NCBI GenBank assembly: GCA_963753765.1 | Contig: CAVWDQ010000006.1 | Location: forward strand, 65,297 to 129,296 | Length of the DNA: 64,000 nt | Source of the DNA: an uncultured Bacteroidales bacterium | Lineage (GTDB): Bacteria > Bacteroidota > Bacteroidia > Bacteroidales > GCA-2748055 | Direction: 5' to 3' | Shown here: in pieces, positions 44,366-63,338 of the stretch | Layout of the letters: every line of letters begins with the position of its first letter | Numbering within the stretch: the first letter of the stretch is position 1 | Made by a program: the position numbers and the translations under genes | The notes under the pieces: generated by a model | What the model saw: the letters and a program-made list of their open reading frames with translations, nothing else | The model's database searches: none | What the model was told of the DNA's origin: nothing

Positions 44366-44371
44366 GGTCTG

Positions 44372-44926: not shown

Positions 44927-44997
44927 GAAGTGGTAATAGTTAGGTTGGATAATTTTGCAATAAATCCCTTTAGAACAAAATTAAACTAAGCGGCCAC

Positions 44998-45759: not shown

Positions 45760-45778
45760 GAGATAAAAGTTTATATGG

Positions 45779-45814
45779 GTTAGTGTAGTTAGTTGTTAAT
45801 TGTTAGTAGTTATT
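45779..45814 (-). repeat. Array of five ACTAAC-like units (read on the minus strand) in the URO-D / creatininase spacer
   Basis: On the + strand: gttagt at 45779-45784, 45788-45793 and 45802-45807, gttaat at 45795-45800 and gttatt at 45809-45814. The period is 7-9 nt. The array lies 19 nt upstream of the ATG at 45759. Confidence 0.85.
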
Positions 45815-45816
45815 GC

Positions 45817-46791
45817 TTAATTCGTTTTTTGGGAGGCGGTGCGCATGGCCTTGAGGTGTTCAATGGGTGTGTTTACAGTGATCTCGCAGCCTCCGGACAG
45901 GATGAAGGGTCTTCCCTCCTCCTGCTTACACAGCGCTTCCGATTCCCGGACGATCGCTTCCGCACCCTGGTCCTGGATGACTGTCACCGGATCAAGGTTA
46001 CCGCAGCGGATAATTTCATCCCCCAGCTTCTCGTAGGCCTGGTCCATATCAACCATCCAGTCGATATCAACAATGTCGGGTTTTACATCTCTTATATCCT
46101 CCAAAAGGTGGGTGATGTTCCCGCAAATATGCAACTTAACCCTGGCGCCCAGCGACTGGATATATTCAAAAAGTTCCCGCTGTCTATCCTTTACTAAATC
46201 TCTGTAGTTCTCCACATCTATCTGGGAACATATGGCATCGCCCACTCCGATAATATCGCATCCTGCCTCCACCTGTGCCCTGGCAAAATCCTTGGCAGTA
46301 ATCATGACCTTATCCATAAGCCGCTTGATGAAATCGGGCTCCATATAGATCTTAAGCAGGATCTCACTGACCCCGGCCAGGTCACAGCTCTCGGCCAGGG
46401 GACCTTCGATCCAGCCAATAACCGGCACTTCATTCCCCAGCTGCTTTCTAAGCGCTTCAGCTCCCCTGATCCTGTCCAGGGTCCTCTCCTCTTTATATAC
46501 ATCAGGATTCTTCAAGAGTGCAATATCCTCCATGGAACGAACCAGGATCTCCATGCAACGCGGTACGGCTTCATGGGGGAAAGTGATCTTTGCCCCAAAG
46601 GCAGCAGTCTCCCTGTACGGGTCGGAAATTACTCCCACTGCATCCATCCCAAAATCGTCCCGGCACCGGAGGTTGCTATCCACCAGCGCCCTGAAATCGG
46701 AGGCAAACTGGCCATAGGTATATCCCGCATACCGGGCTGCAAAATGCATCAGGATAGGATGAAATAATGTATGATTGCTCATGCCACCCAA
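45817..46791 (-). CDS. Uroporphyrinogen-decarboxylase (URO-D) family protein (MtaA/CmuA-like)
   Basis: 324 aa of the URO-D-like TIM barrel type. Segments include FGMDAVGVISDPYRETAAFGAKITFP, WIEGPL, IIGVGDAICS and PFILSGGCEI. Confidence 0.65.
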   Translation of the reverse strand: MGGMSNHTLFHPILMHFAARYAGYTYGQFASDFRALVDSNLRCRDDFGMDAVGVISDPYRETAAFGAKITFPHEAVPRCMEILVRSMEDIALLKNPDVYKEERTLDRIRGAEALRKQLGNEVPVIGWIEGPLAESCDLAGVSEILLKIYMEPDFIKRLMDKVMITAKDFARAQVEAGCDIIGVGDAICSQIDVENYRDLVKDRQRELFEYIQSLGARVKLHICGNITHLLEDIRDVKPDIVDIDWMVDMDQAYEKLGDEIIRCGNLDPVTVIQDQGAEAIVRESEALCKQEEGRPFILSGGCEITVNTPIEHLKAMRTASQKTN

Positions 46792-46805
46792 GATAATGAA
46801 AATTC

Positions 46806-47945
46806 CTATTGGGCTTGTCTCGCGTCGTGGCGATCCAGGATTTCCAGGGTCCGGTCAAGAGGAAGTGCCTCCATATGATGCCCCTCATATCCGGTCATCT
46901 CTTCAGCCATAAACAGGGAGTTGTAGACTGCTTCCTCGGTGGCCTCCACCACTGCCAGGAAAAGAGGCGACATAAAGTCATTTTCAAGCCCGGGACTCTG
47001 CCGGATTATGCTGTCGCTCCGGTAAGGGATGCGGCAATCCTTATGGGTGGAAAATGCGATGGCATAATCGCCGCTTCCATTGGACATAAAGGAACCAACT
47101 CTCCCCAGGGCCAGAAAGGAGCGCTTTGCCAGTCGCTCCAGGTTCCGGGCAGAGAGGGGTGCATCGGTTGCAATTACAATCATACAGGAGCCATCAACTC
47201 TGTGCCCGCCACCATGTGCCAGGTAGTGCTTCTCCAGTTCCTGGCCCACCGGTGCTCCGTTAATGCTCAGGATGCCCCCGAAATTGGTTTGCACCAGTAC
47301 ACCCACTGTATAATATCCGCCGGACCCGTCCAACTTGCGGGAGGAGGTGCCTATCCCTCCCTTAAAGCCCAGACAAAGGGTACCGGTACCGGCTCCCACA
47401 TTGCCTTCTGCCACCGGGCCGGTTTTGGCTAAGGCCAGGGCTTCCAGAATATCTTCTTCCCCCACATGGCGGCCCCGGATATCATTGAGCCAGCCATCAT
47501 TAGTTTCCCCTGCCACCGGATTCACCGAGCGGACCTTTTCGTTTCCGGGCAGGGAGAGGGTATAGTCCACCAGGGCAGAAGCTGCAGTAAAAACATTCAG
47601 GGTATTGGTCAGGGCAATGGGGGTTTCCAGATTTCCAAGTTCCTGCACCTGTGTAAAACCCAGGGCTTTCCCAAAACCATTGCCCACAGAAACAGCTGCC
47701 GGAACCTTTTCCTGAAACAGGTTTCCTCCATGGGGTATAATTACTGTGACACCCGTTCGAACCGAATCTCCCATGATCAGGGTCTTGTGTCCCACCTGTA
47801 CGCCATCCACATCCGTAATGGCATTCCAGGCACCTGTCTCCAGTATGCCGGGTTCAATTCCCTTATCCCTGGCCCTGCCACGCTCCTGGGCAAAGGAGCT
47901 TATTGTAAGTATGGATACTGTGCAGAAGAGCAGTAGTTTTTTCAT
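46806..47945 (-). CDS. S58/P1 (DmpA-like) Ntn aminopeptidase, secreted
   Basis: It has a signal peptide (MKKLLLFCTVSILTISSFAQ). It contains ITDVDGVQVGH and NVGAGTGTLCLGFKGGIGTSS, which is like the self-processing region. Confidence 0.7.
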   Translation of the reverse strand: MKKLLLFCTVSILTISSFAQERGRARDKGIEPGILETGAWNAITDVDGVQVGHKTLIMGDSVRTGVTVIIPHGGNLFQEKVPAAVSVGNGFGKALGFTQVQELGNLETPIALTNTLNVFTAASALVDYTLSLPGNEKVRSVNPVAGETNDGWLNDIRGRHVGEEDILEALALAKTGPVAEGNVGAGTGTLCLGFKGGIGTSSRKLDGSGGYYTVGVLVQTNFGGILSINGAPVGQELEKHYLAHGGGHRVDGSCMIVIATDAPLSARNLERLAKRSFLALGRVGSFMSNGSGDYAIAFSTHKDCRIPYRSDSIIRQSPGLENDFMSPLFLAVVEATEEAVYNSLFMAEEMTGYEGHHMEALPLDRTLEILDRHDARQAQ

Positions 47946-47950
47946 ATATG

Positions 47951-48706
47951 TCAGTTGAAGGGTTTTAATTTTTCCGGAAAGCTTTCCCTGAGCAGGGCTC
48001 TGGCCAGGGCCACAGTTGGATCTATGCTAAGCATGCCCCGGACAGTGGCTTCGGGGTAGGCCAGGGGAATTTCGGTACATCCCAGGATTACCGCCCGGGC
48101 TCCCTGAGCGGCCAGCCAGGCAAATCCCTGGTCCAGGTTCTCCATGGCCTGTGGATGGATCCGGTCGGGCAGGGATTTAATTCCGTATTCCGGATCATAT
48201 ACAGCGGCATGAATCAATTTTTCCTGCATTTCAAAGGGGGGCAATATGGCCTCATGGCCCCTTGCGGCAAGTGCATCCCGGTAAATACCGGCCCTGTATG
48301 TCCCGGTAGTAGAGAGCACTCCCACATGCTTTACTCCGGGTGCCAGGGCCTCCAGAAAATCCATGCACTCCTCAAGCATGTTCAGAAGCCTGATGCGGCT
48401 CCCTTCTCTTTTTAGGATATCCAGGATCACATCATATATGGGCGGGGCATGTGCCGTATTGCAGGGGATCCCGGCAACCGTTGCACCAGCTTTTTCAAGC
48501 CTTATCAGAATTTCTGCCAGGGCCTTTCCCGGATTTTCCTCCACCTTTCCAAGGAGATACTCCGTGCGGTCATTAATGCCGGAAGGCAGTGAAAATAACA
48601 AGGCATCCACATGCTCCTGGTCCGATGCTGCCAGACTATTGTCAAAGACTTTTTTCATCAGGTCAAGACCGGCGTGGGGCCCGACACCTCCTACAATTCC
48701 AATCAT
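47951..48706 (-). CDS. Aspartate/glutamate racemase-family protein (aspartate racemase-like)
   Basis: It begins MIGIVGGVGP. The two catalytic Cys motifs are GIPCNTAHA and ILGCTEIPL. Confidence 0.8.
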   Translation of the reverse strand: MIGIVGGVGPHAGLDLMKKVFDNSLAASDQEHVDALLFSLPSGINDRTEYLLGKVEENPGKALAEILIRLEKAGATVAGIPCNTAHAPPIYDVILDILKREGSRIRLLNMLEECMDFLEALAPGVKHVGVLSTTGTYRAGIYRDALAARGHEAILPPFEMQEKLIHAAVYDPEYGIKSLPDRIHPQAMENLDQGFAWLAAQGARAVILGCTEIPLAYPEATVRGMLSIDPTVALARALLRESFPEKLKPFN

Positions 48707-48722
48707 GACCTTAAGATAAGGC

Positions 48723-49670
48723 TTAGCCCGAACATGAGCAAGATATCCGGGGGAGGATCTCCTGATCCAGGTTCATCCTCTCCAGCCTGTCCTTCCGGGA
48801 GACAAAGCAGCTCTCACATTGGCTGAAACGTTCCAGATCCCACAGATCGGCAAAAACCAGCCCCTTATTCAAAGCAATTCCATAGTCGAGCACCTGTTCC
48901 AGCGAATGGATAACCGGCTCCTGGAAATAGCCCTTAGCAGCCAGGAAATCCAGGGCCCCGTTCCCGGATCTGACCGGGATCACCGAGCAAATATCCACCC
49001 CGCAGGCAAAGGCAAAATCTACAGATCGGCAGGCCCACTCCACCCCTTCTTCCTCCGAGAGAAAGGGAGGGCGCAAAAGGATAAATGCACGAGTGGAGAT
49101 CCCGTTTCCCTTAAGAAATCCTACACTCTTCTTGAAGTTCTCCAGGCTCATCCCCTTGTTCAGGCGGGGCAGAATCTCCGGGTGGATAGTCTCCAGGCCG
49201 ATGGCCACCTGAAGCTGGCCGGAAAGCTTCCTGTCAAAATCAAGACATGACTCTCCGATAAAGGCCGTATGGCTTTCCACTAAAACGTTCTCAAAAGCAG
49301 ATAAAAGAGTTGCGATCTGCTGATAATCCTCCACGGGAATGGCCCCGGGATCAAAAAAGCTGCCACTGTTAAAAAGCTTCAGATAGCTTGCGGGCTTTAG
49401 TTTTTCAAGTGCATATTCAATCTGGGCCGCTATGGCTCCGGGAGGAACTGTCTCATCCGTGGTATGCTTCCAGAGATCACACATCAGGCAGCTGTAGGGA
49501 CATTCCCTGTTGGTCAGAAGTATGGCCGACACCTCTTTCACATTCCCTTCCGGGGAAGGCTCCTGTTCATTGAACCAGCCATAGGGTCTTAAGGGAACTA
49601 CCGGGGACTTATCTCCCCGCAAAGACCGGATCCAGCGGCCATCTGTACTGAATTCCGGGACCTTACTCAT
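48723..49670 (-). CDS. Radical SAM enzyme, family unassigned
   Basis: The CX3CX2C motif is NRECPYSCLMCDLW, followed by FNSGSFFD. A C-terminal Cys cluster is present (CESC...SCSCSG). The preferred start MSKVPEF (49670) overlaps the upstream stop by 8 nt; the track ORF extends to 49772. Confidence 0.75.
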   Translation of the reverse strand: MSKVPEFSTDGRWIRSLRGDKSPVVPLRPYGWFNEQEPSPEGNVKEVSAILLTNRECPYSCLMCDLWKHTTDETVPPGAIAAQIEYALEKLKPASYLKLFNSGSFFDPGAIPVEDYQQIATLLSAFENVLVESHTAFIGESCLDFDRKLSGQLQVAIGLETIHPEILPRLNKGMSLENFKKSVGFLKGNGISTRAFILLRPPFLSEEEGVEWACRSVDFAFACGVDICSVIPVRSGNGALDFLAAKGYFQEPVIHSLEQVLDYGIALNKGLVFADLWDLERFSQCESCFVSRKDRLERMNLDQEILPRISCSCSG

Positions 49671-50991
49671 AGATGGAGAGAAACTCCTTGCGATAGTCCA
49701 GCTCCTTTTCGGGGAAATGAGCCTGGAAAGCATCACCGGAGGCAGCTCCATGCTGGAAACGCCTCTTTTCAAATACGGGCATATCCATTCCTGTGATCGC
49801 CTTCACTCCACTTGCTACCACCTGTCCCTTAAGGGCATAGAGCTTTTCATGATCCCAATCGGTGAGATCGATAAAGGGAATCCCTTCGGCCACCTCTATC
49901 ACATTCTCCAGGGTATAAGGGCTGAAGCTGCTGAAGCCCAGGGTATCGGCCGTTGTATAGGTTCGCATATAGCCCCTGCTCAGCCCCCCGCTGTAAGTGA
50001 GAGAATGCTTCATCTTTCCAACACCCCATCCTTCGTGGTAAAGCATCAGGTTGTTAAGCACGCTGCGAATGGTCAGTTCCGGATTCTCCTCGATGGGATA
50101 GTCCTTCAGATTCTCGTCACCACCATCCCCATCTATCATGTGAACCCAGTCGGGGTAGCGCCTGCGGATCCCCTCCAGCAGCGCCAGGTTCATGGTGGCC
50201 GCCTGGATATCCAGGGGCTTATAGTCTTCCACCACCTTTACAGTCTTTTTCCAGTCAAGCCCCGATGCCTTCACCTCAATGGGTTCCAGGAAAACTTCCA
50301 GGTTCAGGGCTTTTAGGAACTCCCTGGCCTGCTTTAGATCCTCCCCGTCACCATCCACACTCAGGGTAAAGGCCTTCAGCCTGGAGGGACTCTCGCCCAG
50401 CTCCAGCAAGGCATGATAGGTAAGCAGAAATACGGAACCACTGTCAATCCCTGCTGAAAAAGAGACCCCGATGGGCCCGCTGGTGGCCTTATGCTTCAGC
50501 CACTTAAGGATCTCACCATATAGAGCAGTCATGTACTGCCTGCCTATCTCCTCCACCGGTGTTCCGGCAAAGCGGTTTCTTTCCGGGGTAAAAAAGCGCT
50601 GGTGAACCGGGCTGGGATCGGGACAGCCCAGAAGTTCAATGGTGGTGATATAGTGTGCCGGCGCCATGCGGGTATAAGAGGGATGAAACTGATCATCCAG
50701 TCCCTCCTTTTCCAGGTACTTATATATGGTATCGATGCGTTCTGCCAGTACCAGGCAGGGCCCGGCCTTTAATTTGGCAATAAAGAAACGAATCGGCCGC
50801 CCTATGGAACGGGCCATGCGTATGGTCTTTCCGTCCACGGCCACCAGGGCAAACTGTCCATCAATGCCCCGTACACCTTCAGTATCTCCGGCCTTTACAA
50901 GCTCCACAGCCTGCTCCATAGACATATTATAAATTGTATTCTTATCCGGATCTGTTAAATCCACCACGCGGTTCACATATTCCTGGTTCAT
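49663..50991 (-). CDS. Asparagine-synthetase-B-like PP-loop ATP pyrophosphatase lacking the N-terminal Cys nucleophile
   Basis: The PP-loop is VSFSAGIDSGSV, with a GDGGDENLKDY block. The N-terminus (MNQEYV...) has no Cys2 and only a remnant of the Ntn domain (IDGQFALVAVDGKTIRMARSIGRPIRFF). Confidence 0.75.
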   Translation of the reverse strand: MNQEYVNRVVDLTDPDKNTIYNMSMEQAVELVKAGDTEGVRGIDGQFALVAVDGKTIRMARSIGRPIRFFIAKLKAGPCLVLAERIDTIYKYLEKEGLDDQFHPSYTRMAPAHYITTIELLGCPDPSPVHQRFFTPERNRFAGTPVEEIGRQYMTALYGEILKWLKHKATSGPIGVSFSAGIDSGSVFLLTYHALLELGESPSRLKAFTLSVDGDGEDLKQAREFLKALNLEVFLEPIEVKASGLDWKKTVKVVEDYKPLDIQAATMNLALLEGIRRRYPDWVHMIDGDGGDENLKDYPIEENPELTIRSVLNNLMLYHEGWGVGKMKHSLTYSGGLSRGYMRTYTTADTLGFSSFSPYTLENVIEVAEGIPFIDLTDWDHEKLYALKGQVVASGVKAITGMDMPVFEKRRFQHGAASGDAFQAHFPEKELDYRKEFLSIYE

Positions 50992-51020: not shown

Positions 51021-51045
51021 GGGCGATATTCCCAGTATATCGCCC
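51021..51045 (-). promoter_or_regulatory. 5'-leader hairpin upstream of the AsnB-like operon
   Basis: A 9-bp stem pairs gggcgatat (51021-51029) with atatcgccc (51037-51045), around a 7-nt loop. It sits between a -7-like box and the ATG at 50991. On the minus strand it is followed by CAUUUUGUU. Confidence 0.45.
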
Positions 51046-51047
51046 TT

Positions 51048-51055
51048 CAAAGGTA
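51048..51055 (-). promoter_or_regulatory. Candidate -7 promoter box (TACCTTTG) for the AsnB-like operon
   Basis: The minus strand reads TACCTTTG, a TAnnTTTG match, 57 nt upstream of the ATG at 50991. Confidence 0.35.
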
Positions 51056-51238
51056 GTAAAATCAAGGCTTTTTTTACAATATGGAATGACTCTAAATAAG
51101 TCCTCAAGAGTATCAAAAGTGTTAAAAAACCTTAATTTCGTTATTGTACATATATGTATGTATGCACTCTTAAACTTAACAACGATCTAATTATTAGACA
51201 TTTTGTTATTCATTGCTAACTTTAAAACTACTTCAATT

Positions 51239-54222
51239 ATGCGAAATTCTGCATGGTGGAAAAGCGGCTTTTTGTCGCTAATCCTGTTTGGTTTTGCGAT
51301 CAGCTTAACCTTTGCCCAGGAGACAACAGTGACCGGTACGGTCTCTTCCGACATGGAAGGCCCGATTCCCGGTGTAAACATTGTGATCCAGGGAACCACA
51401 CAGGGGGCCGTGACCGACGTGGATGGTAATTATAGTATTACCGTTCCGGGTCCCGATGCCGTCCTGGTATTTACTTCTATTGGTTATGCTTCACAGAGTA
51501 TTACTGTGGGCAACCAGACCTCTATTAATGTTTCACTCGTGGAGGATGTCCAGGCTCTGGACGAAATTGTGGTTATCGGTTACGGTACCCAGAAAAAGAA
51601 AGAGCTGACCAGTGCCATCTCCAATGTGAAATCAGAAGAGTTCAACAAGGGTTCGGTGAACAGTCCAGCCGGACTGGTCCAGGGTAAAGTGGCCGGTCTC
51701 TCTATCTCCAAGCCGGGTGGCAACCCCAACCAGGGTTACACCATGCGTTTGCGTGGTATGAGTACCATTGGTGCCAACACCCAGCCCCTTGTTGTAATCG
51801 ACGGTGTGGTTGGTGCAGATCTCAACAACGTTGATCCCAACGACATTGAGTCCATGGACGTCCTGAAGGACGGTTCCGCTGCTGCCATTTACGGCACCAG
51901 GGGATCCAGTGGTGTAATCCTCGTGACTACCAAGAAAGGTAGAAGGGGAACTGCCCAGATCAATTACAATGGCATGGTAACTCTGGAAACCGTGGGTAAA
52001 TTTCCCAATGTGATGACTTCAGATCAGTGGCGCACCCTTTCAGCAGAGACAGGGACCGGAACGGATTTTGGATACGACACAGACTGGTTTGAGGAAACTA
52101 CCCAGAATGCTTTCCAGCAGACCCACAACCTGAGCTTATCAGGCGGTACCGATAAGACCACCTACATGGCCTCTTTCAACTACCGTGACGGAGATGGTAT
52201 AGCCATCAATACCGGGTATACCCAGTACAACGGAAGACTGAACCTGAGTCAGAAAGCCATTAACGACCGCCTGACTGTGGACCTGAATATCGGTGCCACC
52301 CAGCGCGAATGCTCAGTTGGGTTTTGACGAAGCATTCCGTTATGCCAGTATCTTTAATCCCACGGCTCCCGTAAGAAGCGATGATGCTGCATACGAGCAG
52401 TATGACGGGTACTTCCAGCAGGTACTTTATGATTACTACAATCCGGTGGCCATTCTGGAGCAGAATGTAAATGACAGAAAAGACCAGCGTGTAAATGTCG
52501 CACTGAAAGGTACCTTTGAAATTATAGATGGTCTGAAAGTAGATGCTTTCTACTCAATTCAGAATCAGAACGACAACAAAGGCAGCTACCGTGACAAAAA
52601 CAGCTACGGAACCGGTATGGACCGCAACGGTCTGGCCCGGAGATGGTATGATGAGAACTCATTCCAGCTGTTCGAATCAACCATCAACTACCTGACCGAT
52701 ATTAGCGGTGCCAGCCTCCAAATCCTGGGAGGATATTCCCACCAGAGCTTTAACTGGCAGGGATTTTCCGCAGAAGGTGGCGATTTCATCACCGATGCCT
52801 TTACCTATAACAACCTGGGCGCTTCCAAAGACTTTAATGAAGGAATTGGAAGATCTATACAGCTATCAGAATATGGGTACACTGATTGCTTTTTTTGGCC
52901 GGGTTAACCTGAATGTAACCGACAGCTGGTTCCTGATGCTGAGTGGACGTTATGAAGGATCCAGCCGTTTTGGTGAAGGTAACAAATGGGGTCTCTTCCC
53001 TGCCGTTGGTGGTGGGGTGGACCTGGCCAATGTGCTGGATATTTCCGCCATGGACAACCTGAAGCTGCGAGTCAGTTACGGAATCACCGGCAACCAGCCC
53101 CCGGATCCTTACTATGTCGCTTTTGCGCCTGAGTCCATCCGGAAACTTCTTTTATAACGGGGACTTTATTCCCGGTTACGCCCCTTCCAGCAATGCCAAC
53201 GCGGATCTGGGATGGGAGAAGAAAGGCGAATTTGACATGGGAATTCGACTTCTCACTGCTGGACGGAAGGTTGTATGGTTCATTTGACTTACTATACCAG
53301 GACCACCACCGACCTGCTTTTCGAATACGAGGTGCCGGTTCCTCCGAACCTTTATGCCACTGCCTGGATGAACCTGGGTGAGATAAAAAACAGCGGTCTG
53401 GAACTGACCCTGAGCTGGAATGCAGTGCAGTCAGGTGATTTCTCCTACAGTACCACCATTACGCCCACCTATTACCTGAAGAACGACCTGGTCTCCCTCT
53501 CCGGTACATTTAACGGTGCAGAGCTGACCTACGGTGTACGCGACCTGGGTGCCATGGGTGCCCCCGGACAGGCTGGTGTACCTCTTGGTTAGAGCCGAAG
53601 AAGGAGAACCCATCGGTCAGCTCTGGGCCCATACCTTCATGGAGGTAGGCCCTGATGGCGACCTGATCCTCCGTGATACCAACGAAGATGGTACCGTGGA
53701 TGAACTGGACCGCTCTGTGTAAGGAAACGGACTGCCCGATGCTGAATTCGGATGGGGCAACATGCTTCAAGTTCAAGAATTGGGAACTGAATATCTTCTT
53801 CCGCAGTGTACTTGGACACTGACCTGAACAACACCTTCCAGGGCATTCTATGAAGTGCCGGCAGATGATCACTTCTTATAACCTTCCGGTAACCGCCACC
53901 GATATGAGAAACGCTGAGACCGGAACCCTGCTGAACAACTCTTCAGGATGTGCTTTCGAGCTATCACATTGAGAATGCCTCATTCTTTGCACTGGACAAT
54001 ATGAGCACTGGCCTATAACTTTGATATGTCGGGAAGCAACGCTTTCAGGAACATCCGGGTCTTTTTAGCAGGCAACAACCTGTTCTACATCACCGGTTAC
54101 AAGGGGGTTGATCCCAGCTCCGGTATGACGACGGTGGCAATGTACTGATCCCCGGTATCGATAGAAGGAATACCTGGTTCAGGACCAGGTCTGTTTCACT
54201 GGGTGTAAGCCTCGGTTTCTAA
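51239..54222 (+). pseudogene. susC: SusC/RagA-type TonB-dependent receptor, many frameshifts
   Basis: It starts MRNSAWWKSGFLSLILFGFAISLTFAQ. A CarbopepD_reg domain follows (VTGTVSSDMEGPIPGVNIVIQGTTQGAVTDVDGNYSI), then a plug (DEIVVIGYGTQKKKELTSAIS; MDVLKDGSAAAIYGTRGSSGVILVTTKKG). Track fragments are 51203-52327, 52293-52907, 52708-53157, 53193-53381, 53275-53592 and 53534-53722, with further short pieces ending ...RSVSLGVSLGF (54222). Confidence 0.85.
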
Positions 54223-54264
54223 CCCTCTAAAAGCAGACGATATGAAAACAACAGAAAGATATAC

Positions 54265-55936
54265 ATGAGAAAATCACTTATTCTGGTTATGCCAGTTGTT
54301 GCTAGTCATGCTGGCAGCTACTTTTAACCAGTCATGTACCAACCTGGATGAAGAGTTATACGGTGAAGTAACACCGGAAAATTTCTTCAATACAGAGGAG
54401 GAGATCCTTGCCGCCCTGGGTGCTGCCTATACACAATTTGGTGGTTGGGCTTCCGGCGATCCCTGCAACATGCAATTGTGTTTCAACCGACGAAATGGTC
54501 GTACCCACCCGTGGATCGGACTGGGACGATGGTGGTGACTGGAGAAGGATGCATCTCCACGCCTGGACCCGGGAAGATGGAAATATGAATGGGGGATGGA
54601 ACTTTGGTTTTGGTGGCGTGAATACAGCCAACCGCCTGATCTACCAGTTCGAGGTCCTGGTGGAAGACGGATCCATGGACGCCAGATGTGGCCGCCGCAT
54701 TTATTGCCGAGCTAAGAGCCGTCAGAGGATTCTTTTACTGGCAACTGATCGAATGTATGGGAATGTTCCCCTGGTGACCGATTTTGCCAACGCTGAAGCC
54801 ACAGCCTGCTACTGTCCCAAGGGCAGATGTATATGCCTGGCTGGTAGCCGATCTTGAAGAGGCATGTACCCCTGCTACCCAAGGAAGTGGATGGAACTAC
54901 CTATGGACGGATGAACTACTATGCCGGTCAAGCACTGCTGGCCAAGCTGTATCTGAATGCTGAGGTATATACCGGTATTCCTGCATATGCTGCTGCAGAT
55001 AGCTGCTTGTAAGGATATCATTGATAATGGCGGATACAGCCTCACAGGCAACTATTTTGACAACTTCAGTGCAGGCAATACGGGTACCACTGAAATGATC
55101 TTTGCCATTCCTTACGATCAGGTATATTATGGTGGATTTAACATTGCCGTGCGCACCCTGCACTATGCCAGTCAGTATACCTACAACCTGACTGCCCAGC
55201 CCTGGAACGGATTCTGTACCCTGGAGGAGTTCTACAACTCCTACGAAGATACAGATCTTCGTAAAGGGGATGTAGGGACACGGATGGTCCTGCCATCAAA
55301 CGTGGTAATTTTATTGCCGGCTACCAGTACAACGCTGGACGGAACTCCGACCATGGATGATGGTGCAGATGCAGAATGATCCGGACGGGAAATACCTGAA
55401 CTTCGGTAACATTGGTACCGGGGAACCCCAGATCAATGAGCTGGGTCCCCAGGCCTGGCGCCAGTCCGGTGTTCGGATAGGTAAATGGGAAATCGAGTTG
55501 GGTGGCCATCCCGATGCCATGAATAACGACTATGCCGTTTTCCGTCTGGCCGATGTTCTCCTGATGAAGGCAGAAGCCCTCTGGAGACAGAATCCGGGTG
55601 ATGCCAATGTGCTTCCCCTGGTGAACCAGATCAGGCAGCGTGCTGGTGTGGATGACCTGACCACAGTTGATGGTCCTGTCAGTTTTGATATTGGCGGTCC
55701 GGTTATTCCGGGTGGAGAACTGTTCAACGAGATCGGCCGTGAGATGGCATTTGAGAACAGCAGGCGCCAGACCCTTATCCGCTGGGGATTGTTTGACGAT
55801 GTTGATCAAATGGGTACTTCCCTATAACAATCCAGGTGATATACTTGTGGATGGTGAGCATACTACGCTCTTCCCCATCCACAGGGACAAGATCGATGCC
55901 AACCCCAACCTGGTTCAGAATCCCGGGTATAATTAG
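54265..55936 (+). pseudogene. susD: SusD/RagB-type outer-membrane lipoprotein, many frameshifts
   Basis: ATG at 54265 (MRKSLILVM) is followed by a frame change into LLLVMLAATFNQSC (lipobox). Fragments are 54296-54538, 54408-54857, 54957-55379, 55357-55827 and 55667-55936. SusD-like motifs are FRLADVLLMKAEAL and EMAFENSRRQTLIRWGLF. Confidence 0.8.
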
Positions 55937-55966
55937 AAGTAGCAAATTGAATATATAGTATCTGCG

Positions 55967-56004
55967 GAGAGCAGGCAAATGCAAAATTGCCTGCTCTCTT
56001 TTTT
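55967..56004 (+). terminator. Rho-independent terminator after susD
   Basis: A 12-bp perfect stem pairs gagagcaggcaa (55967-55978) with ttgcctgctctc (55987-55998), around an 8-nt loop. A T6 run follows (55999-56004). Confidence 0.8.
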
Positions 56005-56017
56005 GTATCTTTCGCGC

Positions 56018-59000
56018 ATGTTTTCAAAGCAGATCAAATTACTCAATTCTGACAGGACTATCTATCACTCGCATGTTATCTTCTTCAGGCCTGCCATTCG
56101 AAAGACCTGAACCCGGATCCGGCTACCCGCTTTACCATGCTGGACCAAAAGCATACAGGGATCCGCTTCAGCAATGATGTGGAATACAGCGAAGAATATA
56201 ATACCTACACCTACCGGAACTTTTACAACGGTGCCGGCGTCGGCCTGGGTGATTTTAACCGGGATGGGCTCACGGATATCTATTTCTGCGGGAATATTGC
56301 TGACAACAGGCTCTATATCAACCAGGGGGAATTTCCGTTTTGAAGATATTACCGAAGAGGCCGGCGTGGCCTGCCAGGGAGTCTGGTCCACCGGAGTCAG
56401 CATTGCTGATGTGAACGGCGATGGATGGCCCGATATCTATGTGTGCAAATCCGGCCTGCCCGACACCCCGCACCGGAATAATGAGCTCTTTATTAATAAT
56501 GGTGACCTGACTTTTACGGAACAGGCCGGGGCCTATGGCCTTAATGATATGGGGCTCTCCACCCATGCCACTTTTTTTGATTACGACCGGGATGGGGATC
56601 TGGACTGCTACCTGCTTAACAATTCCTTTCAGTCGGTCACCGAATTTGACCTGGTGGAGGGGGGAAGATTGGTACGGGATACACTGGGTGCGAATAAACT
56701 GTACAGGAACGATGGAAATGTTTTTGTGGATGTAAGTGATGAAGCAGGTATTTATGGCAGCAAGATTGGCTTTGGTCTGGGGGTCAGTGTGGCCGACCTG
56801 AACCGCGACGGCTGGATGGATCTCTATGTAAGCAATGATTTTTTCGAACGGGATTATCTTTATATAAATATGCAGGACGGGACCTTTTCTGAAGTCCTGG
56901 ATCAGCAGCTGGGTGAAACCAGCCTTGGAGCCATGGGTGCAGATATTGCCGATATTAATAATGATGCCTGGCCCGATATTTTTGTCACCGAAATGACTGC
57001 CGAGGGCGATGCCCGCTTAAAAACCAAGGTATTGTTTGAAGACTGGGCAAGCTACAGGAACAAGGTGGATAAGGGCTACCACCGCCAGTTTGCCCGAAAT
57101 GTCCTGCAGCTGAATAATCGCAACGGCTCTTTCAGTGAGATTGGGAGGTACAGCGGAGTCGACGCCACCGACTGGAGCTGGGGAGCACTGATCATGGACC
57201 TGGATAATGACGGATGGAGGGACCTGTTTGTGGCCAATGGAATTTACAAGGATCTGCTGGACCGCGATTATCTCGACGTTTATTCCAACCCGGCCCTGAT
57301 GCGATCCATTATAGAGAGTGAGGAGCAGGCTATTTTGAGCATCATCGATCGCATTCCTTCCCAACGTGTTCCCAATTATGCCTTTCATAATAATGGCGAC
57401 CTGAGCTTCACCAACTATGCAGAAAAATGGGGTCTTGGCACCCCTTCCCACTCCAACGGGGCCGCCTATGGCGATCTGGATAATGACGGGGATCTTGGAC
57501 CTGGTAATTAATAATGTGAACATGCCCCCCTTTATCTATCGTAACAATACCAGGGATCAGGATCATTCCAACTTTCTTTCACTAAGTTTTACGGGGACCG
57601 GAGGAAATCAACATGCCATCGGTGCTGCAGCCAGTCTTTACTATGACGGAACGAAAAGCTACCAGGAACTGATCCCCATGCGAGGATTTAAGTCAGCCGT
57701 GGAATGCCGCCTTCATTTTGGACTCGGGGAAGTGATGCGAATCGATTCAATACATATCAGCTGGCCGGATGGTAGCTGCTCCACCTTGTATGATGTGGAA
57801 GCCAATCAGTTTCTGACCCTGAATCAGTCCAGTGCTCTTCCCTGCCGGGATATTTCTTCTCCTTCAATGGACAGGGTCTTTAGCAGGAGCGTTTCACCAC
57901 CCGGCCTTGATTACACGCACAGGGAGAATGATTTTGTGGATTTTCAAAGAGAGGCCCTGCTATTCCATATGCACTCCAATGAGGGTCCCCGAATGGCTGC
58001 CGGGGATGTGAATGGCGACAAAATGGATGATCTGTATATCTGCGGGGCCTCAGGTAGTGCGGGAGCCCTCTATATACAAAACAAAAATGGATCGTTTTCT
58101 TCCTCCAACAGAGCTCTTTTTGATAAGGATATCAACTCGGAAGAAACCGGGTGCGCCTTCTTTGATGCCGATGGGGATGGAGATCTGGACCTCTATGTAG
58201 CCTGTGGTGGAAATGAATTTTCCTCCAGTTCTTCATCACTATCCGACAGGCTTTACCTGAACAATGGCTCAGGCAATTTTACCAGATCCGAACAGATTTT
58301 ACCAGCAGGTCGCTATGAGAGCACTTCCTGCGTAAAGGCTTCCGATTTTGACAGGGACGGGGACATGGACCTTTTCGTGGGTATCCGTCTGCGCCCCTAT
58401 CTATATGGAATACCTGTGAATGGCTACCTGCTGCAGAACGACGGGCGGGGCAATTTCACCAATGTTTCAGATAAGGTGGCCCCCGAACTGAAGGAGCTGG
58501 GGATGATCACCGATATGGTCTGGACTGATGTTGACATGGATAAGGATCCCGATATGGTCATTGTGGGAGACTGGATGCCGGTAAAGGTGTTTATCAATGA
58601 AGGGGGCCAGTTTACGGACCGCTCCGACTCCTGGGGATTATCCGGAACCGAAGGGTGGTGGAACCGGGTCTCTGCCGGGGATCTGGACGGCGATGGTGAT
58701 ACGGATCTGGTGCTGGGCAACCATGGTTTGAATTCCCGCTTCCAAGCCACCTCTGAAAAACCGGTCACCATGTATGTGAACGATTTTGATCTGAACGGAA
58801 CAGTGGAACATATCATTTGCGTATTTAATGGTGACACAGCTTATCCCCTGGCCATGAAAGATGCCCTGGTGAGGCAGATTCCCGCCCTGGGAAGCAAGTA
58901 TGAAACCTTTAAGTCTTACAGCGGGCAGACCATCCAGGATATTTTCTCCGAGGAGATACTTGAGCGTTCGGTGGTGAAGCAGGTCAATATGCTGGAGAGT

Positions 59001-59354
59001 GTCGTGCTGACCAATGATGGGTCTGGCTCCTTTCAGGTTCATCCTCTCCCGTTGGAAAGTCAGCTATTTCCTGTTTATGCCATCATCACGGGAGATTTCG
59101 ATCAGGATGGACTTGGTGATATTCTTCTGGGCGGTAATCTGAGCCGGACCAAACCTGAAACAGGGATTTACTGTGCCGGGTACGGTTTATTCCTGAAAGG
59201 AAAAGGGTCTGGAGATTGGGCTGCTGTTCCTGCCGATAGTTCCGGATTCTTCACAAAGGGAGAAATTCGTGATTTTGAAATGATAAAAATTAATGGAAAG
59301 CAAGTGATTTCTGTTGCGAGAAACAATCAGAATTTACACTTTTACACTTTCTGA
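56018..59354 (+). pseudogene. FG-GAP/VCBS-repeat ASPIC/UnbV (CRTAC1-like) lipoprotein, paralogue 1, three frameshifts
   Basis: Fragments are 56018-56110 (MFSKQIKLL...), 56137-56343, 56174-57511 and 57417-59354. The breaks lie near 56067, in the G5 run 56325-56329 (correction gives NQGNFRFEDITEEAG) and in TT 57495-57496 (correction gives DGDLDLVINNVNMPPFIYRNN). It has repeated DxDGDGxxD FG-GAP Ca-binding motifs and an UnbV block (IGAAASLYYDGTKSYQELIPMRGFKS...ISWPDGS). Confidence 0.8.
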
Positions 59355-59367
59355 ATTTGGAATAAGA

Positions 59368-59967
59368 ATGGATAGGATGAATAGGATGAAATGGATGGTG
59401 CTGGTCGTCATGGCGACACTGATTGTGGGAGGATGCTCACCGGGAAAAACATACGAACGCAGGTTAAACAGGGAGCTGGCCAGCGGAGTCAGGTACGATT
59501 CCCTGTTTATGGGAATTTCGTTCGGGATGAGCTCAGAAGAGTTCTATGACGTTTGCTGGGGTTTGAACAGGGACAGTTTAGTTAAACAGGGATCCGCCAA
59601 CATGAGCGTTCAATACGATATAAATGAAGAATTGGCCTATCCGGCTACTATGAACTTCTACCCCGTTTTCTGGGAGAACCATATCGTTGAAATGCCGGTA
59701 CGTTTTATCTACAATGGCTGGGCTCCCTGGAACAAAGAGCTTTCAGCAAGTTCGCTGGCACTGGATGTGAAAGACTGGTACGAAGATATCTATGGCAAAG
59801 GATTTATTACCGTAAGCCACCCCATGAACGGTGATGCATATACCAAGATTGATGGAAACAGGAGGATCACCATTTACGTGGAGAACGACCTGTACGTCTG
59901 GGCCATATTTACCGATATGCTCCATAAAATGGAGAGTGATACGCTTTCAGCTGAAGTACAGAACTGA
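59368..59967 (+). CDS. Hypothetical lipoprotein
   Basis: MDRMNRMKWMVLVVMATLIVGGCSPGK gives a signal peptide plus lipobox. I recognise no family. It is sandwiched between VCBS paralogues 1 and 2. Confidence 0.5.
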   Translation: MDRMNRMKWMVLVVMATLIVGGCSPGKTYERRLNRELASGVRYDSLFMGISFGMSSEEFYDVCWGLNRDSLVKQGSANMSVQYDINEELAYPATMNFYPVFWENHIVEMPVRFIYNGWAPWNKELSASSLALDVKDWYEDIYGKGFITVSHPMNGDAYTKIDGNRRITIYVENDLYVWAIFTDMLHKMESDTLSAEVQN

Positions 59968-60008
59968 TATTCCAATGAAAATCCTGCTCACAAAAATCAC
60001 TCCCCGGT

Positions 60009-63000
60009 TTGCTTCTGGTGCCGGCTCTTCTGCTTAGCCTCTCCTGCGGCCGGAAAGTGGAACCAGGGTCTGAAGATCAACTCTTTACCCTGATGCCCGA
60101 ATCCTATACAGGGGCCGGATTTGTGAACCACCTGGACTATGATGAGCAGTTAAAGAAGAAATTCAATATTTACACCTACCGGAATTTCTACAATGGAGGA
60201 GGTGTGGCCCTGGGAGACATAAATCAAGATGGGCTCATAGACATTTTTCTTACCTCCAATATGGGACCCAATGTGCTCTACCTGAATAAGGGGGATCTCA
60301 AATTTGAGGATATCTCCGGGCAGGCCGGCATAAGCGGCCATGGAGAATGGTCCACAGGTGCCAGCCTGGCCGATGTGAATGGGGACGGGTGGACCGATAT
60401 TTACGTTTGTAATTCTGGAAATGTGGAGGGCGATGAGCGGCACAATGAGCTCTATATCAACAATGGGGACCTCACTTTTACAGAAAGCGCCGCTGAGTAT
60501 GGAATCGATGACCGGGGCTACTCCACCCACGGGGCCTTCTTCGATTATGACAGGGACGGGGACCTGGATCTCTATCTGCTGAATAACTCCTTCAAAGCCA
60601 TCGGAAGTTTTGACCAGAACGAGAGCCAGCGCCTGGTAAGAGATACCATCGGGGGTGATAAGCTGTTCCGGAACGATGATAATCATTTTACGGATGTAAG
60701 TGAAGCAGCAGGGATCTATACCAGCCTCATTGGATTCGGACTGGGGGTGACCGTTGGAGATATCGATCAGGATGGCTGGATGGACATCTACATTTCCAAT
60801 GACTTTTTTGAGCGGGACTATATTTATATGAACAATGGTGACGGAACCTTCCGGGAAACTCTCACTGAAATGATGCCCTGCATCTCTGCCGCATCCATGG
60901 GTGCCGATATGGCCGATCTTAATAACGATCACTACCCGGAGATCTTTGTAACCGATATGATCCCGGAGCATGATGCCAGGCTTAAAACCAAAACCACCTT
61001 CGATAGCTGGGACTCTTATAAGTCCAATTACGAAAACGGATACCATCACCAGTTTACCAGGAACATGCTGCAGCTGAACAATACCGATGGTACCTTCAGC
61101 GAAATTGGGCGGCTTGCAGGTGTTTATGCCACCGATTGGTCCTGGGGTGCCCTGATCATGGACCTGGATAACGATGGTTTGAAAGATATTTTTGTGGCCA
61201 ACGGGATCTACCAGGATCTGACCGACCAGGACTATATCCAGTACTTTTCCAATCGCGATATGGTGGCATCCATTATTTCAGGGAACAATGTGGACTACAA
61301 AACCCTGATCGATGCCATTCCCTCGGTAAAGCTTCCCAGTTATGCCTTCAAGAACATGGGGGGATACCAGTTCGAGAACAGGGCCCTTCCCTGGGGACTG
61401 GCCGAACCCAGCCACTCCAACGGCTCTGCTTACGGGGATCTGGACAATGATGGGGACCTGGACCTGGTGGTAAACAATGTAAACATGCCCATGTTCCTCT
61501 ACCGTAACGAAACCAGCGGAAAGCTACCCGACCATCACTATCTGAAGGTAATCCTGAAAGGTAAAGGGGCTAATACCGATGCCATTGGAAGCAAGGTTAC
61601 TGCCAGGCACCAGGGCCAGTCTTTCTACCTGGAACAAATGCCAATGCGCGGATTCAAATCAACCATGGACCCCCGCCCCAACCTGGGGGTGGGATCACTC
61701 ACCGTGGTCGATTCGCTGATTGTCCAGTGGCCCGACGGGACATATACCTTAATGAGAGATGTTCCCACCGACCAGACGCTCACCCTCTACCAGGAAGATG
61801 GGCTGCCCTCCCCTCCTCTCCAGGCAGGTAAAGAAGAGCAGGCAGCTTTTTGGTTCAATGAGATCACCGCTGACATATCTGTTGACTTCATTCACCGGGA
61901 GAATGATTATGATGATTTTCGCAGGGAAAGACTAATATACCAGATGCTGTCCACCGAAGGGCCACGCAGCGCTGTGGGGGATGTGAACGGGGATGGATTG
62001 GAAGACTTTTACATGGGAGGTGCCAGGGCCCAGGCTGGCAGGCTCCTTATCCAGCAGAAGGACGGTTCTTTTACCGGCTCCAATGAGCAGCTCTTTGAAA
62101 AAGACAAAGATGCTGAGGATACGGATTGTGCCCTTTTTGATGCAGATGGGGATGGCGACCTGGACCTCTATGTGGCCAGCGGGGGAAATGAATTCTCCAG
62201 TTCTTCGTCATCGCTTTCCGATCGCCTGTACCTGAACAATGGACGCGGACTTTACTCCAGGTCCACCCAGGTCCTTCCCGCCGGGCGCTATGAAAGTACC
62301 GCGTGTGTACGTGCGGCAGATTTTGATAAGGATGGTATTATGGAGCTTTTCGTTGGGATTCGCCTGCTTCCTTTCCTCTACGGGGTGCCTGTCAATGGCT
62401 ACCTGCTGGAAAATGACGGACAGGGACATTTTACCAATGTGACTGAGCAGCTTGCACCTGAACTGAAAGAAGTGGGGATGCTTCGCGATATGCAATGGGA
62501 AGATGTGGATGGTGACGGGGACCTGGATATGATCCTGGCGGGCGACTGGATGCCGGTGAAAATATTTTTGAATGAGAATGGAAGCTTCAGGGAAAACAAG
62601 GAGGCCTTTGGATCTTCTCAGACCACCGGCTGGTGGAACTGTATAGCCACAGGAGATTTTGACGGCGACGGAGATATTGATTTTGTTGCCGGGAACCACG
62701 GTCTTAACTCACGCTTCAAGGCAAGTGAAGAGCGGCCGGTCACCATGTATATAAACGATTTTGATCTGAATGGATCAGCCGAACAGGTCATCTGTGTCTA
62801 TGAGGGGGACAGCGCCTACCCCATGGCATTGAAACACGATCTGACCCGTCAGATTCCGGTTTTGCTAAAAAAGTATCCCAGATACGAGCTATACAAAGAA
62901 CAGACCATCACCGATATTTTTGCACCCGAACAGCTGGCCAATGCCATTAAGCTGGATGTTGCCCAGCTGGAATCTGCTTTGTTCTTCAATGATGGTTCGG

Positions 63001-63338
63001 GTCATTTTAGCATGCTAAATCTTCCGGTTGAGATCCAGTTCTCCACGATGATGGCAGCTGAGACAGGTGATTTCAACGGGGATGGCAAAGTCGACATCCT
63101 GCTGGGGGGCAATCTCTATCATGTTAAGCCGGAGGTGGGACGTTACGATGCCAGTTACGGACATCTCCTGGAAGGAGACGGAGCAGGAGGGTTCCGGGTG
63201 ATTCCTCCGAGCTCTTCCGGCTTTAAACTGGAAGGAGAGATCAGGGACATACAGGCCATCGAAACTCCCTCCGGTAAAATGCTGCTGATTGCACGCAGTA
63301 ACGATCGGCCACAGCTTTTCAGGGTACAGAAACAATGA
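60009..63338 (+). CDS. FG-GAP/VCBS-repeat ASPIC/UnbV (CRTAC1-like) lipoprotein, paralogue 2 (intact, 1109 aa)
   Basis: It has a lipobox (LLLSLSC). There are two propeller-like halves rich in VNGDGWTDIY / DYDRDGDLDLYLLNN / DLDNDGDLDLVVNN motifs. They are separated by an UnbV/ASPIC block (IGSKVTARHQGQSFYLEQMPMRGFKS...VQWPDGT). The track start is TTG at 60009. An ATG at 59975 (MKILLTKITP) is out of frame by one base, next to a C4 run. Confidence 0.85.
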   Translation: MLLVPALLLSLSCGRKVEPGSEDQLFTLMPESYTGAGFVNHLDYDEQLKKKFNIYTYRNFYNGGGVALGDINQDGLIDIFLTSNMGPNVLYLNKGDLKFEDISGQAGISGHGEWSTGASLADVNGDGWTDIYVCNSGNVEGDERHNELYINNGDLTFTESAAEYGIDDRGYSTHGAFFDYDRDGDLDLYLLNNSFKAIGSFDQNESQRLVRDTIGGDKLFRNDDNHFTDVSEAAGIYTSLIGFGLGVTVGDIDQDGWMDIYISNDFFERDYIYMNNGDGTFRETLTEMMPCISAASMGADMADLNNDHYPEIFVTDMIPEHDARLKTKTTFDSWDSYKSNYENGYHHQFTRNMLQLNNTDGTFSEIGRLAGVYATDWSWGALIMDLDNDGLKDIFVANGIYQDLTDQDYIQYFSNRDMVASIISGNNVDYKTLIDAIPSVKLPSYAFKNMGGYQFENRALPWGLAEPSHSNGSAYGDLDNDGDLDLVVNNVNMPMFLYRNETSGKLPDHHYLKVILKGKGANTDAIGSKVTARHQGQSFYLEQMPMRGFKSTMDPRPNLGVGSLTVVDSLIVQWPDGTYTLMRDVPTDQTLTLYQEDGLPSPPLQAGKEEQAAFWFNEITADISVDFIHRENDYDDFRRERLIYQMLSTEGPRSAVGDVNGDGLEDFYMGGARAQAGRLLIQQKDGSFTGSNEQLFEKDKDAEDTDCALFDADGDGDLDLYVASGGNEFSSSSSSLSDRLYLNNGRGLYSRSTQVLPAGRYESTACVRAADFDKDGIMELFVGIRLLPFLYGVPVNGYLLENDGQGHFTNVTEQLAPELKEVGMLRDMQWEDVDGDGDLDMILAGDWMPVKIFLNENGSFRENKEAFGSSQTTGWWNCIATGDFDGDGDIDFVAGNHGLNSRFKASEERPVTMYINDFDLNGSAEQVICVYEGDSAYPMALKHDLTRQIPVLLKKYPRYELYKEQTITDIFAPEQLANAIKLDVAQLESALFFNDGSGHFSMLNLPVEIQFSTMMAAETGDFNGDGKVDILLGGNLYHVKPEVGRYDASYGHLLEGDGAGGFRVIPPSSSGFKLEGEIRDIQAIETPSGKMLLIARSNDRPQLFRVQKQ

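Follow-up and report, generated by a model that had tools for sequence, protein, structure and literature searches.

In this study, we describe a pair of overlapping genes from an uncultured Bacteroidales bacterium (GenBank assembly GCA_963753765.1, contig CAVWDQ010000006.1, positions 65,297 to 129,296 of the forward strand; this stretch of 64,000 nucleotides is called the window in the following, and all positions refer to it). The first gene codes for a relative of the asparagine synthetase AsnB, here named AsnBl, which is predicted to be an adenylate-forming enzyme without glutaminase. The second codes for a small radical S-adenosylmethionine (SAM) protein related to RaSEA, the beta subunit of the archaeosine synthase of Euryarchaeota. 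The two-gene makeup of this module and its distribution are well defined, and no curated family covers it. Tentatively, with less than even confidence and by analogy with the archaeal enzyme, we propose that both proteins form a complex for nitrogen transfer in the manner of ArcS-RaSEA.

Linkage and distribution of the gene pair

Both open reading frames (ORFs) are considered real genes rather than chance ORFs, because more than 8000 homologs of AsnBl and 6530 homologs of the radical SAM protein were found at E ≤ 1e-3. A first-pass annotation, made from the letters of the window alone, had reported that the stop of the AsnBl gene overlaps the start of the radical SAM gene by 8 nt; this overlap (ATGAGTAA) was located on the reverse strand and, judged by its arrangement, is typical of translational coupling. 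The motifs quoted there were also all found, namely SFSAGIDSGS and GDGGDE in AsnBl, and CPYSCLMC (residues 57–64), NSGSFFD (101–107), CESC (285–288) and SCSCSG (310–315) in the radical SAM protein. The length of about 316 aa given for the latter has to be corrected to 315 aa plus the stop codon.

For the analysis of gene linkage, 80 loci from a one-genome-per-species scan and 80 more from an independent scan of Joint Genome Institute (JGI) metagenomes were collected (160 in total), and adjacency was scored at the 135 loci with at least 700 nt after AsnBl (71 from genomes and 64 from metagenomes). A radical SAM gene follows AsnBl directly on the same strand at 123 of these 135 loci (69/71 in genomes, 54/64 in metagenomes), and at the two exceptions among the genomes it is still present within the locus. 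The 8-nt overlap is retained in 48 of 73 loci, those of Acidobacteriota and Chitinophagaceae among them. Coincidence can therefore be dismissed. The prediction of a fixed and translationally coupled pair thereby holds beyond the window, with both families genomically linked elsewhere. At one locus (L023), a same-strand block of SusC, SusD, FG-GAP and a 252-aa ORF is inserted between the two genes, which still bracket it. Also, a divergent AsnBl (P0401) still precedes a radical SAM gene whose product is 51% identical to that of the window.

In the genome scan, carriers of the pair belong to Bacteroidales, Prolixibacteraceae, Draconibacterium, Flavobacteriaceae, Chitinophagaceae and Mucilaginibacter as well as to Chlorobiota, KSB1, Gemmatimonadota, Verrucomicrobiota, Acidobacteriota, Balneolales and Rhodothermaceae. 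Within the Flavobacteriaceae, Lutimonas vermicola IMCC1616 and L. saemankumensis (loci L036 and L055) are cultured carriers. At least eight bacterial phyla hold the pair, and environmental sequences, which come from sediment, soil, peat and water, number in the thousands. Across phyla, the AsnBl proteins of the genome scan are 52–93% identical to the window protein. The AsnBl family is compact: among 1.84 billion representatives at 50% identity, 761 were found at E ≤ 1e-3 and 173 at E ≤ 1e-30. A metagenome scan aimed at a 'GQGGDE' subfamily (alignment A4) gave no match. In one high-GC representative, the predicted protein P0302 (761 aa), an AsnB-like part is joined to a radical-SAM-like one (ALETVHPEALPRL), and the sequence between them is partly garbled. 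Most probably, this is not a genuine fusion but an adjacent pair read through with frameshifts.

Properties of the two proteins

The sole match of AsnBl in Pfam was PF00733 (36.9 bits at a gathering score of 21; residues 169–305), and SAGIDS of the PP-loop lies at residues 179–184, which assigns the protein to the asparagine synthase superfamily. In NCBIfam, the sole match was the asparagine synthase equivalog TIGR01536 with 32.7 bits, far below its cut-off of 267.1. This model was matched weakly by all 21 diverse AsnBl members of the alignment and profile A3, and NCBIfam holds no model describing the AsnBl family. Single-sequence searches of the PDB gave no match for AsnBl and none for the radical SAM protein. 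With the A3 profile, human ASNS (2e-14) and E. coli AsnB (5e-10) were detected, covering only profile positions 166–298, followed by LarE (0.004), beta-lactam synthetase (0.0075; 47 residues) and CarA (0.018).

Comparison of A3 with E. coli AsnB (locus L084) by hhalign placed AsnBl residues 28–416 onto AsnB residues 103–457 (probability 96.5%, 332 columns). AsnBl shares with AsnB and human ASNS the synthetase fold, the PP-loop, the GxGxDE loop, the equivalent of Lys449 and an alignable second half of the N-terminal domain, of which a segment (IDGQFALVAVDGKTIRMARSIGRPIRFF) is the remnant of LQGMFAFALYD...RDHLGIIPLYM in AsnB. In contrast to these enzymes, AsnBl has an insertion after GDGGDE and lacks a counterpart for the ~100 residues with which the glutaminase domain starts, where AsnB has its Cys nucleophile and its glutamine site (Arg49, Asn74 and Glu76). 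The TTIR segment of AsnB, implicated in aspartate/beta-aspartyl-AMP binding and in beta-aspartyl-AMP formation, is paired with LDIQ. From the lost residues, the retained K409 and GDGGDE, and the exchange of TTIR for LDIQ, AsnBl is predicted to be an adenylating, glutaminase-free relative of AsnB for which aspartate is probably not the substrate. The ATP/adenylate site is retained. Since the glutaminase half is lost, a supply of ammonia by the enzyme itself would be impossible.

An in-frame stop lies two codons 5′ of the AsnBl start codon, so that no longer form with an N-terminal Cys is possible, and none of the A3 members has an N-terminal Cys. AsnBl thus has neither the Cys nucleophile nor the complete N-terminal nucleophile (Ntn) domain of a glutamine-hydrolyzing asparagine synthetase. 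These results, together with PF00733 and the profile matches to ASNS and AsnB, bear out the earlier description of a Cys-less adenylating enzyme of the AsnB superfamily, and the ~100 aa of Ntn domain said to be left are consistent with the alignment start at AsnB residue 103. The N-domain of AsnBl is truncated and not just Cys-less.

The same annotation had likened AsnBl to beta-lactam and carbapenam synthetases and to lasso-peptide cyclases. A special kinship was not found, and AsnBl is no closer to these enzymes than to true asparagine synthetases. Together with AS-like peptide amidases and nitrile synthetases, they are likewise Cys-less AsnB relatives using acyl-adenylation for products other than asparagine. 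However, the affinity of AsnBl to this group is unspecific (E 0.0075–0.036) and restricted to the PP-loop region; the values for the beta-lactam and carbapenam synthetases (0.0075 and 0.018) are weaker than those for true asparagine synthetases. Also, the N-domain is of full length in this group, and none of its members is paired with a RaSEA-like enzyme. The lasso and macrolactam cyclase models were matched by 5 (NF033535, E ≥ 0.036) and 6 (NF033561) of the 21 members, and neither a conserved small ORF or precursor peptide nor a recurrent B-protein or protease was found at the pair loci.

The radical SAM protein carries the invariant C57, C61 and C64 and, by its structure model, has the partial TIM-barrel fold of the radical SAM superfamily. 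Its score with PF04055 (25.8 bits) is just under the gathering threshold of 29.5. Its sole specific match was TIGR01210, the model of archaeal RaSEA (113.5 bits, E = 1e-32, residues 40–275), and five relatives from other phyla scored 95–122 bits. As these scores are below the cut-off of 212.15, the protein is assigned, by sequence, to a sister clade of RaSEA and not to its orthologs. In the structure model obtained with AlphaFold2 (AF2), the predicted local distance difference test score (pLDDT) was 89. Foldseek searches with this model gave MgmA, Elp3, PFL-AE (PFL-activase), LipA and viperin at template modeling (TM) scores of ~0.5, with a probability of 1.0 for Elp3, PFL-AE, MgmA and LipA. 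The modeled fold is that of a generic radical SAM barrel, Elp3-like most of all. The resemblance to RaSEA- and Elp3-like enzymes suggested in the first-pass annotation is hence confirmed, with homology to RaSEA but no membership in the RaSEA family.

The four Cys residues at the C-terminus (C285, C288, C311 and C313) form a putative second metal site for Zn or Fe-S. This cluster had been called an extra one; it is present and family-wide, and it may not be extra, because in two members (L036 and L029) the match to the RaSEA model runs through the four-Cys motif to within a few residues of the C-terminus.

A search of plasmids revealed no copy of AsnBl and only distant relatives of the radical SAM protein, from Streptomyces. 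On plasmid pFRL5 of Streptomyces sp. F8 (L167; NC_023285.1, 322815–323930), such a protein reaches 173 bits with TIGR01210 and is thereby nearer to RaSEA than the window protein. Its gene belongs to a co-directional cluster with genes for P450, SHMT, GT9, carbamoyltransferase, GDSL esterase, RfaE2 (heptose), epimerase, HAD hydrolase and C-N hydrolase, which looks like an uncharacterized natural-product pathway using RaSEA-type chemistry.

Nitrogen transfer and alternative readings

By analogy, ArcS-RaSEA is the system that the module would work most like, while the radical SAM protein falls outside RaSEA both by its score and by its gene context. ArcS attaches the amine of lysine to preQ0, with NH4+, Asn and Gln being unusable, and does so only in complex with RaSEA, which turns the lysine adduct into the free amidine (PMC11298593). 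Like this system, the module has a small, homologous radical SAM subunit with one radical SAM motif, and an obligate partner by which an electrophilic carbon would be activated so that an amine can add. A stoichiometric complex is indicated by the gene overlap. Unlike the archaeal system, in which RaSEA is encoded with ArcS or ArcTGT, the partner gene here is AsnBl at the 123 linked loci, and thus an AsnB-type PP-loop ATPase stands in the place of a TGT/PUA-type ArcS. Further differences are the bacterial hosts, the TIGR01210 scores of 95–122 versus 212 bits, the absence of 7-deazaguanine genes near the pair, and a substrate that is probably not tRNA.

In the reading that we tentatively favor, AsnBl and the radical SAM protein would act as a 1:1 complex in the fashion of ArcS and RaSEA. 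AsnBl would adenylate an oxygen of the substrate, most likely of a carboxylate, and a sacrificial donor would attack the adenylate with its primary amine; for the archaeal enzymes, this donor is lysine, and the adduct preQ0-Lys accumulates under aerobic conditions. The C–N bond of the donor would then be cut by the radical SAM subunit, so that a bare –NH2 remains on the substrate as an amide or amidine. Thereby, the radical SAM enzyme would in effect replace the lost glutaminase as nitrogen source. The earlier idea of an activation followed by a radical step is plausible. TilS offers a further analogy: this PP-loop enzyme adenylates an oxygen that is then attacked by the epsilon-amine of lysine, giving an adduct of the kind that RaSEA-type chemistry would trim. 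The comparison goes no further, as TilS belongs to another PP-loop family, the lysine stays on its product and it has no radical SAM partner.

The substrate of the complex would most likely be a small amino-acid-like or imported metabolite. In the lineage of the window, the genes that come next on the strand code for an Asp/Glu racemase, an S58 aminopeptidase and a creatininase-like amidohydrolase, and a small nitrogenous substrate would fit these. When all ORFs of the 160 loci were clustered, only four further families were found to recur: CRTAC1-like secreted proteins with the Pfam domains FG-GAP_3 and UnbV_ASPIC (58 loci), a flavin adenine dinucleotide (FAD) protein (43), SusC (18) and SusD (15). 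In many lineages, handling of the substrate would also involve a flavoenzyme similar to QhpG and halogenases, as well as a surface system made up of SusC/SusD and FG-GAP.

Several points weigh against this proposal. The AF2 model of AsnBl, built from a shallow alignment, has a pLDDT of 43 and gives no active-site geometry. As the radical SAM protein scores under the RaSEA cut-off, its chemistry may differ from that of RaSEA. Loss of the glutaminase would not require an organic amine donor, as free NH3 (AsnA-type) or an intramolecular amine (as in beta-lactam synthetase) would serve by analogy, and the cost of one SAM and one ATP per nitrogen is high. Also, at 10 of the 64 metagenome loci AsnBl stands alone among housekeeping genes with no radical SAM gene in the flank, and a distant AsnB-like 'GDGGNE' subfamily, which includes a genome of the candidate phyla radiation (CPR), has a TrmB-like neighbor and no radical SAM gene.

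The solo AsnBl genes (L088, L089, L112, L128, L136, L138, L139, L147, L154 and L161; 51–62% identical) have neighbors such as RibBA, a tRNA U5-methyltransferase-like gene or a chromate transporter. Members of the GDGGNE subfamily (L081, L082, L083 and L085, including a Candidatus Kerfeldbacteria genome; ~30% identical) are always encoded beside a divergent helix-turn-helix gene of the TrmB family.

A possible, albeit doubtful, alternative to nitrogen transfer is that both enzymes act sequentially on one small molecule (cofactor, osmolyte, metallophore or salvage product) without nitrogen donation. AsnBl would make an amide or lactam with free NH3 or with an amine that is either internal or part of a second substrate. 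The radical SAM enzyme would catalyze another kind of radical step, for instance the formation of a C–C bond, a rearrangement or an oxidation. The formation of lactams, peptide amides and nitriles has been described for Cys-less AsnB relatives (PMC13060819). In addition, the flavoenzyme follows the pair in its 43 loci, and on the Streptomyces plasmid the gene for the RaSEA-like protein with 173 bits is clustered with those for P450, SHMT, GT9, carbamoyltransferase and heptose, which resembles a small-molecule pathway. On the other hand, the sole characterized relative of the radical SAM enzyme cleaves the C–N bond of an amine donor, and neither transporters nor carrier proteins nor other biosynthetic genes recur across the 160 loci.

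Modification of a protein or peptide in the cytoplasm is, in our view, improbable. The pair would in this case turn Lys into allysine or introduce a modification that is an isopeptide or derived from an amide, and the likely targets would be the neighboring secreted FG-GAP/UnbV_ASPIC proteins or a quinoprotein-type enzyme, with the help of the QhpG/LodB-like flavoprotein. FG-GAP genes adjoin the pair in varied layouts in Bacteroidales, Flavobacteriia, Chitinophagia, Balneolales and Acidobacteriota, and one stands between the pair genes in L023. However, many pair loci have no FG-GAP gene within 6–8 kb, and given the abundance of FG-GAP paralogs in these phyla, the association could in part reflect background. 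MauG-like di-heme genes are close by in some lineages, and peptide modification is known for AsnB-like enzymes (PMC13060819), while neither a small ORF conserved across phyla nor a recurrent leader peptidase, RiPP (a peptide made by the ribosome and altered post-translationally) recognition element (RRE) or exporter was found at the 160 loci.

The third gene of many pair loci, coding for the FAD protein, has its best curated match in QhpG, and GoxB and LodB are matched as well; these are maturases modifying tryptophan in proteins. The maturation systems of quinone cofactors with QhpD/QhpG or LodB/GoxB similarly have radical SAM and/or flavin monooxygenase genes beside secreted or periplasmic redox proteins. 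All these matches are weak, however, and far under the cut-offs: QhpG is matched with 78.6 bits versus 240, which excludes the protein from this family, and CmlS halogenase (71.5) and the geranylgeranyl-reductase family (56.3) score alike. Also, QhpD is of the SPASM type, no AsnB-like enzyme belongs to these systems, and the gene for this FAD protein is absent from the window.

Even less probable is a modification of tRNA or rRNA, in which a TilS-like adenylation of a base oxygen and amine attack would be followed by RaSEA-like trimming as in archaeosine synthesis. The substrate of RaSEA, of Elp3 and of many PP-loop enzymes is tRNA, the conservation across phyla is very high, the solo AsnBl copies lie among housekeeping genes such as those for tRNA methyltransferase and RibBA, and the four Cys residues are spaced as in a zinc ribbon, a fold that often binds nucleic acid and that would be a putative one here. 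Yet both proteins are acidic (median isoelectric points of 5.9 for AsnBl and 5.7 for the radical SAM protein), Pfam- and NCBIfam-type searches of both detected no RNA-binding domain, and tgt, queC/D/E and arcS-like genes do not recur nearby at the 160 loci. The patchy, accessory distribution and the linkage to SusC/SusD and secreted proteins also speak against RNA as substrate. An ordinary ammonia-dependent asparagine synthetase beside an unrelated radical SAM gene is strongly disfavored and hardly credible: true asparagine synthetases are the nearest solved structures, but the score of 32.7 bits versus 267, the replaced TTIR segment and the non-coincidental adjacency with its conserved overlap contradict it.

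A broader form of the favored nitrogen transfer, which we consider rather unlikely, is a glutamine-independent machine in which a lysine-type sacrificial amine would be attached to an adenylated oxygen by the PP-loop enzyme and the skeleton of the donor removed by the RaSEA-type enzyme. The logic of ArcS-RaSEA would thereby apply to a widespread bacterial pathway, with a metabolite or the secreted FG-GAP/CRTAC1-like proteins as its target. If proteins are the target, the outcome could be an amide bound to the protein along with allysine or, jointly with the QhpG-like flavoprotein, a novel cofactor derived from the protein. Searches of the literature on TIGR01210, bacterial RaSEA, AS-like plus radical SAM enzymes, and UnbV/ASPIC plus SusD found no description of the module.

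Neighboring genes and significance of the module

The FAD protein is encoded directly 3′ of the radical SAM gene, which is the usual layout outside Bacteroidales and Flavobacteriia; Mucilaginibacter and Terriglobus are among the carriers of this flavoprotein gene. FG-GAP genes are found across divergent SusC/SusD genes in Bacteroidales, directly upstream of the pair in Flavobacteriia, directly downstream in Prolixibacteraceae and after the flavoprotein gene in Chitinophagia. In one metagenome-assembled genome (MAG) of Balneolales (L058), AsnBl, radical SAM, FAD, SusC, SusD and FG-GAP genes form a single co-directional array. The features of the window are summarized in Table 1.

Table 1. Positions of the gene pair, its motifs and neighboring features in the window.
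Feature	Position	Strand	Remarks
AsnBl coding sequence	49663..50991	(-)	442 aa, starts MNQEY; predicted PP-loop adenylate-forming enzyme without glutaminase; ORF, PF00733, profile, hhalign
RaSEA-like radical SAM coding sequence	48723..49670	(-)	315 aa plus stop, starts MSKVPEF; TIGR01210, AF2, Foldseek
Gene overlap ATGAGTAA, 8 nt	49663..49670	(-)	Radical SAM ATG within the last codons and stop of AsnBl
Second-half remnant of Ntn glutaminase domain	50572..50910	(-)	AsnBl residues ~28–140; hhalign
PP-loop SFSAGIDSGS, ATP pyrophosphatase motif	50434..50463	(-)	AsnBl residues 177–186; S179, G181, D183, S184 invariant in A3
GDGGDE block, equivalent of the AsnB GEGSDE active-site loop	50113..50130	(-)	AsnBl residues 288–293; G288, G290, G291, E293 invariant in A3
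KRRFQHG motif	49747..49767	(-)	K409 corresponds to AsnB Lys449 (450 counting Met) by hhalign; K409, R411, Q413, G415 invariant in A3
CxxxCxxC motif, C57/C61/C64	49479..49502	(-)	100% conserved in 66 radical SAM family members
C-terminal four-Cys motif CxxC...Cx(1-2)C, C285/C288/C311/C313	48732..48818	(-)	95–98% conserved in 66 sequences, all phyla
Presumed Bacteroidetes-type -7 promoter box (TAnnTTTG), TACCTTTG	51048..51055	(-)	Upstream of AsnBl; conserved in the leaders of L001–L011
Divergent SusC-like and SusD-like genes	51203..55940	(+)	Broken by several frame changes
Two FG-GAP/UnbV_ASPIC genes	56062..63338	(+)	First frameshifted (56062–59354), second intact (60009–63338); a third starts at 63341
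Same-strand array after the pair	42710-48706	(-)	Asp/Glu racemase, S58 (DmpA-like) aminopeptidase, URO-D-like, creatininase-like amidohydrolase, gluconate-dehydrogenase-subunit-3-like, GMC oxidoreductase; tightly spaced

The promoter role of the box TACCTTTG is assumed from the consensus of Bacteroides promoters. A terminator-like hairpin of 9 GC-rich bp followed by CATTTTGTT was found at 51021–51045 on the reverse strand, 30 nt before the AsnBl start codon. What is conserved around it are the box and the 3′ leader CCATTTT..ACTAAACAGATAGAAAATG; a riboswitch or attenuator as conserved regulator was rejected, as Rfam gave no match and the hairpin is not kept in close relatives.

The SusC-like, SusD-like and first FG-GAP genes (51203–59354, forward strand) each contain several frame changes, about ten in 8 kb, and the flanking genes are all intact. 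At these sites, 1-nt indels relative to the window occur in related strains, as judged from Illumina contigs of metagenomes of marine sediment and salt marsh; none is listed inside 48723–50991. The frame changes reflect either true decay of the genes or errors of local assembly where strains vary.

Of the same-strand array after the pair, the racemase, S58 peptidase, URO-D-like and creatininase-like genes are kept only in close relatives (AsnBl at least 69% identical), and the array is therefore not counted as part of the module. For the lineage of the window, the array may be a hint that the substrate resembles an amino acid or a peptide.

In Bacteroidota, a further set of genes was observed in varying order together with FG-GAP, coding for a TolB-like propeller whose middle domain is HZS_alpha, a fusion of a YVTN propeller with a di-heme MauG/CCP domain, and a periplasmic LivK/UrtA-like binding protein. 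This set lies downstream of the pair at L015, L018, L019, L024, L025, L027, L033 and L114, and upstream at L029, L032, L036, L037, L041 and L055. A 'hydrazine synthase-like' identity of two of the neighboring families was rejected because of scores far under the cut-offs, and they are treated as generic beta-propeller and di-heme peroxidase proteins. The idea of a precursor peptide was likewise abandoned: all small-ORF clusters were shadows of neighboring large genes with a narrow taxonomic range, and no small ORF beside the pair is conserved across phyla. As a defense system, neither protein had a match in PADLOC.

The use of lysine as a disposable nitrogen donor that is removed by a radical SAM enzyme, i.e., RaSEA chemistry, has so far been described for one archaeal tRNA modification only. 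New here is a bacterial sister clade of RaSEA that is tied to an AsnB-type adenylating enzyme without a nitrogen source of its own. If the proposed reaction is true, it would represent a second general route for installing amide or amidine nitrogen, and it would provide a function for a large protein family now labeled 'asparagine synthase'. The recurrent links to SusC/SusD, FG-GAP/UnbV_ASPIC and the QhpG-like flavoprotein suggest that Bacteroidota and Acidobacteriota have a system for uptake or maturation that has yet to be described. With Lutimonas vermicola and L. saemankumensis as cultured carriers, the module is accessible to experimental tests.

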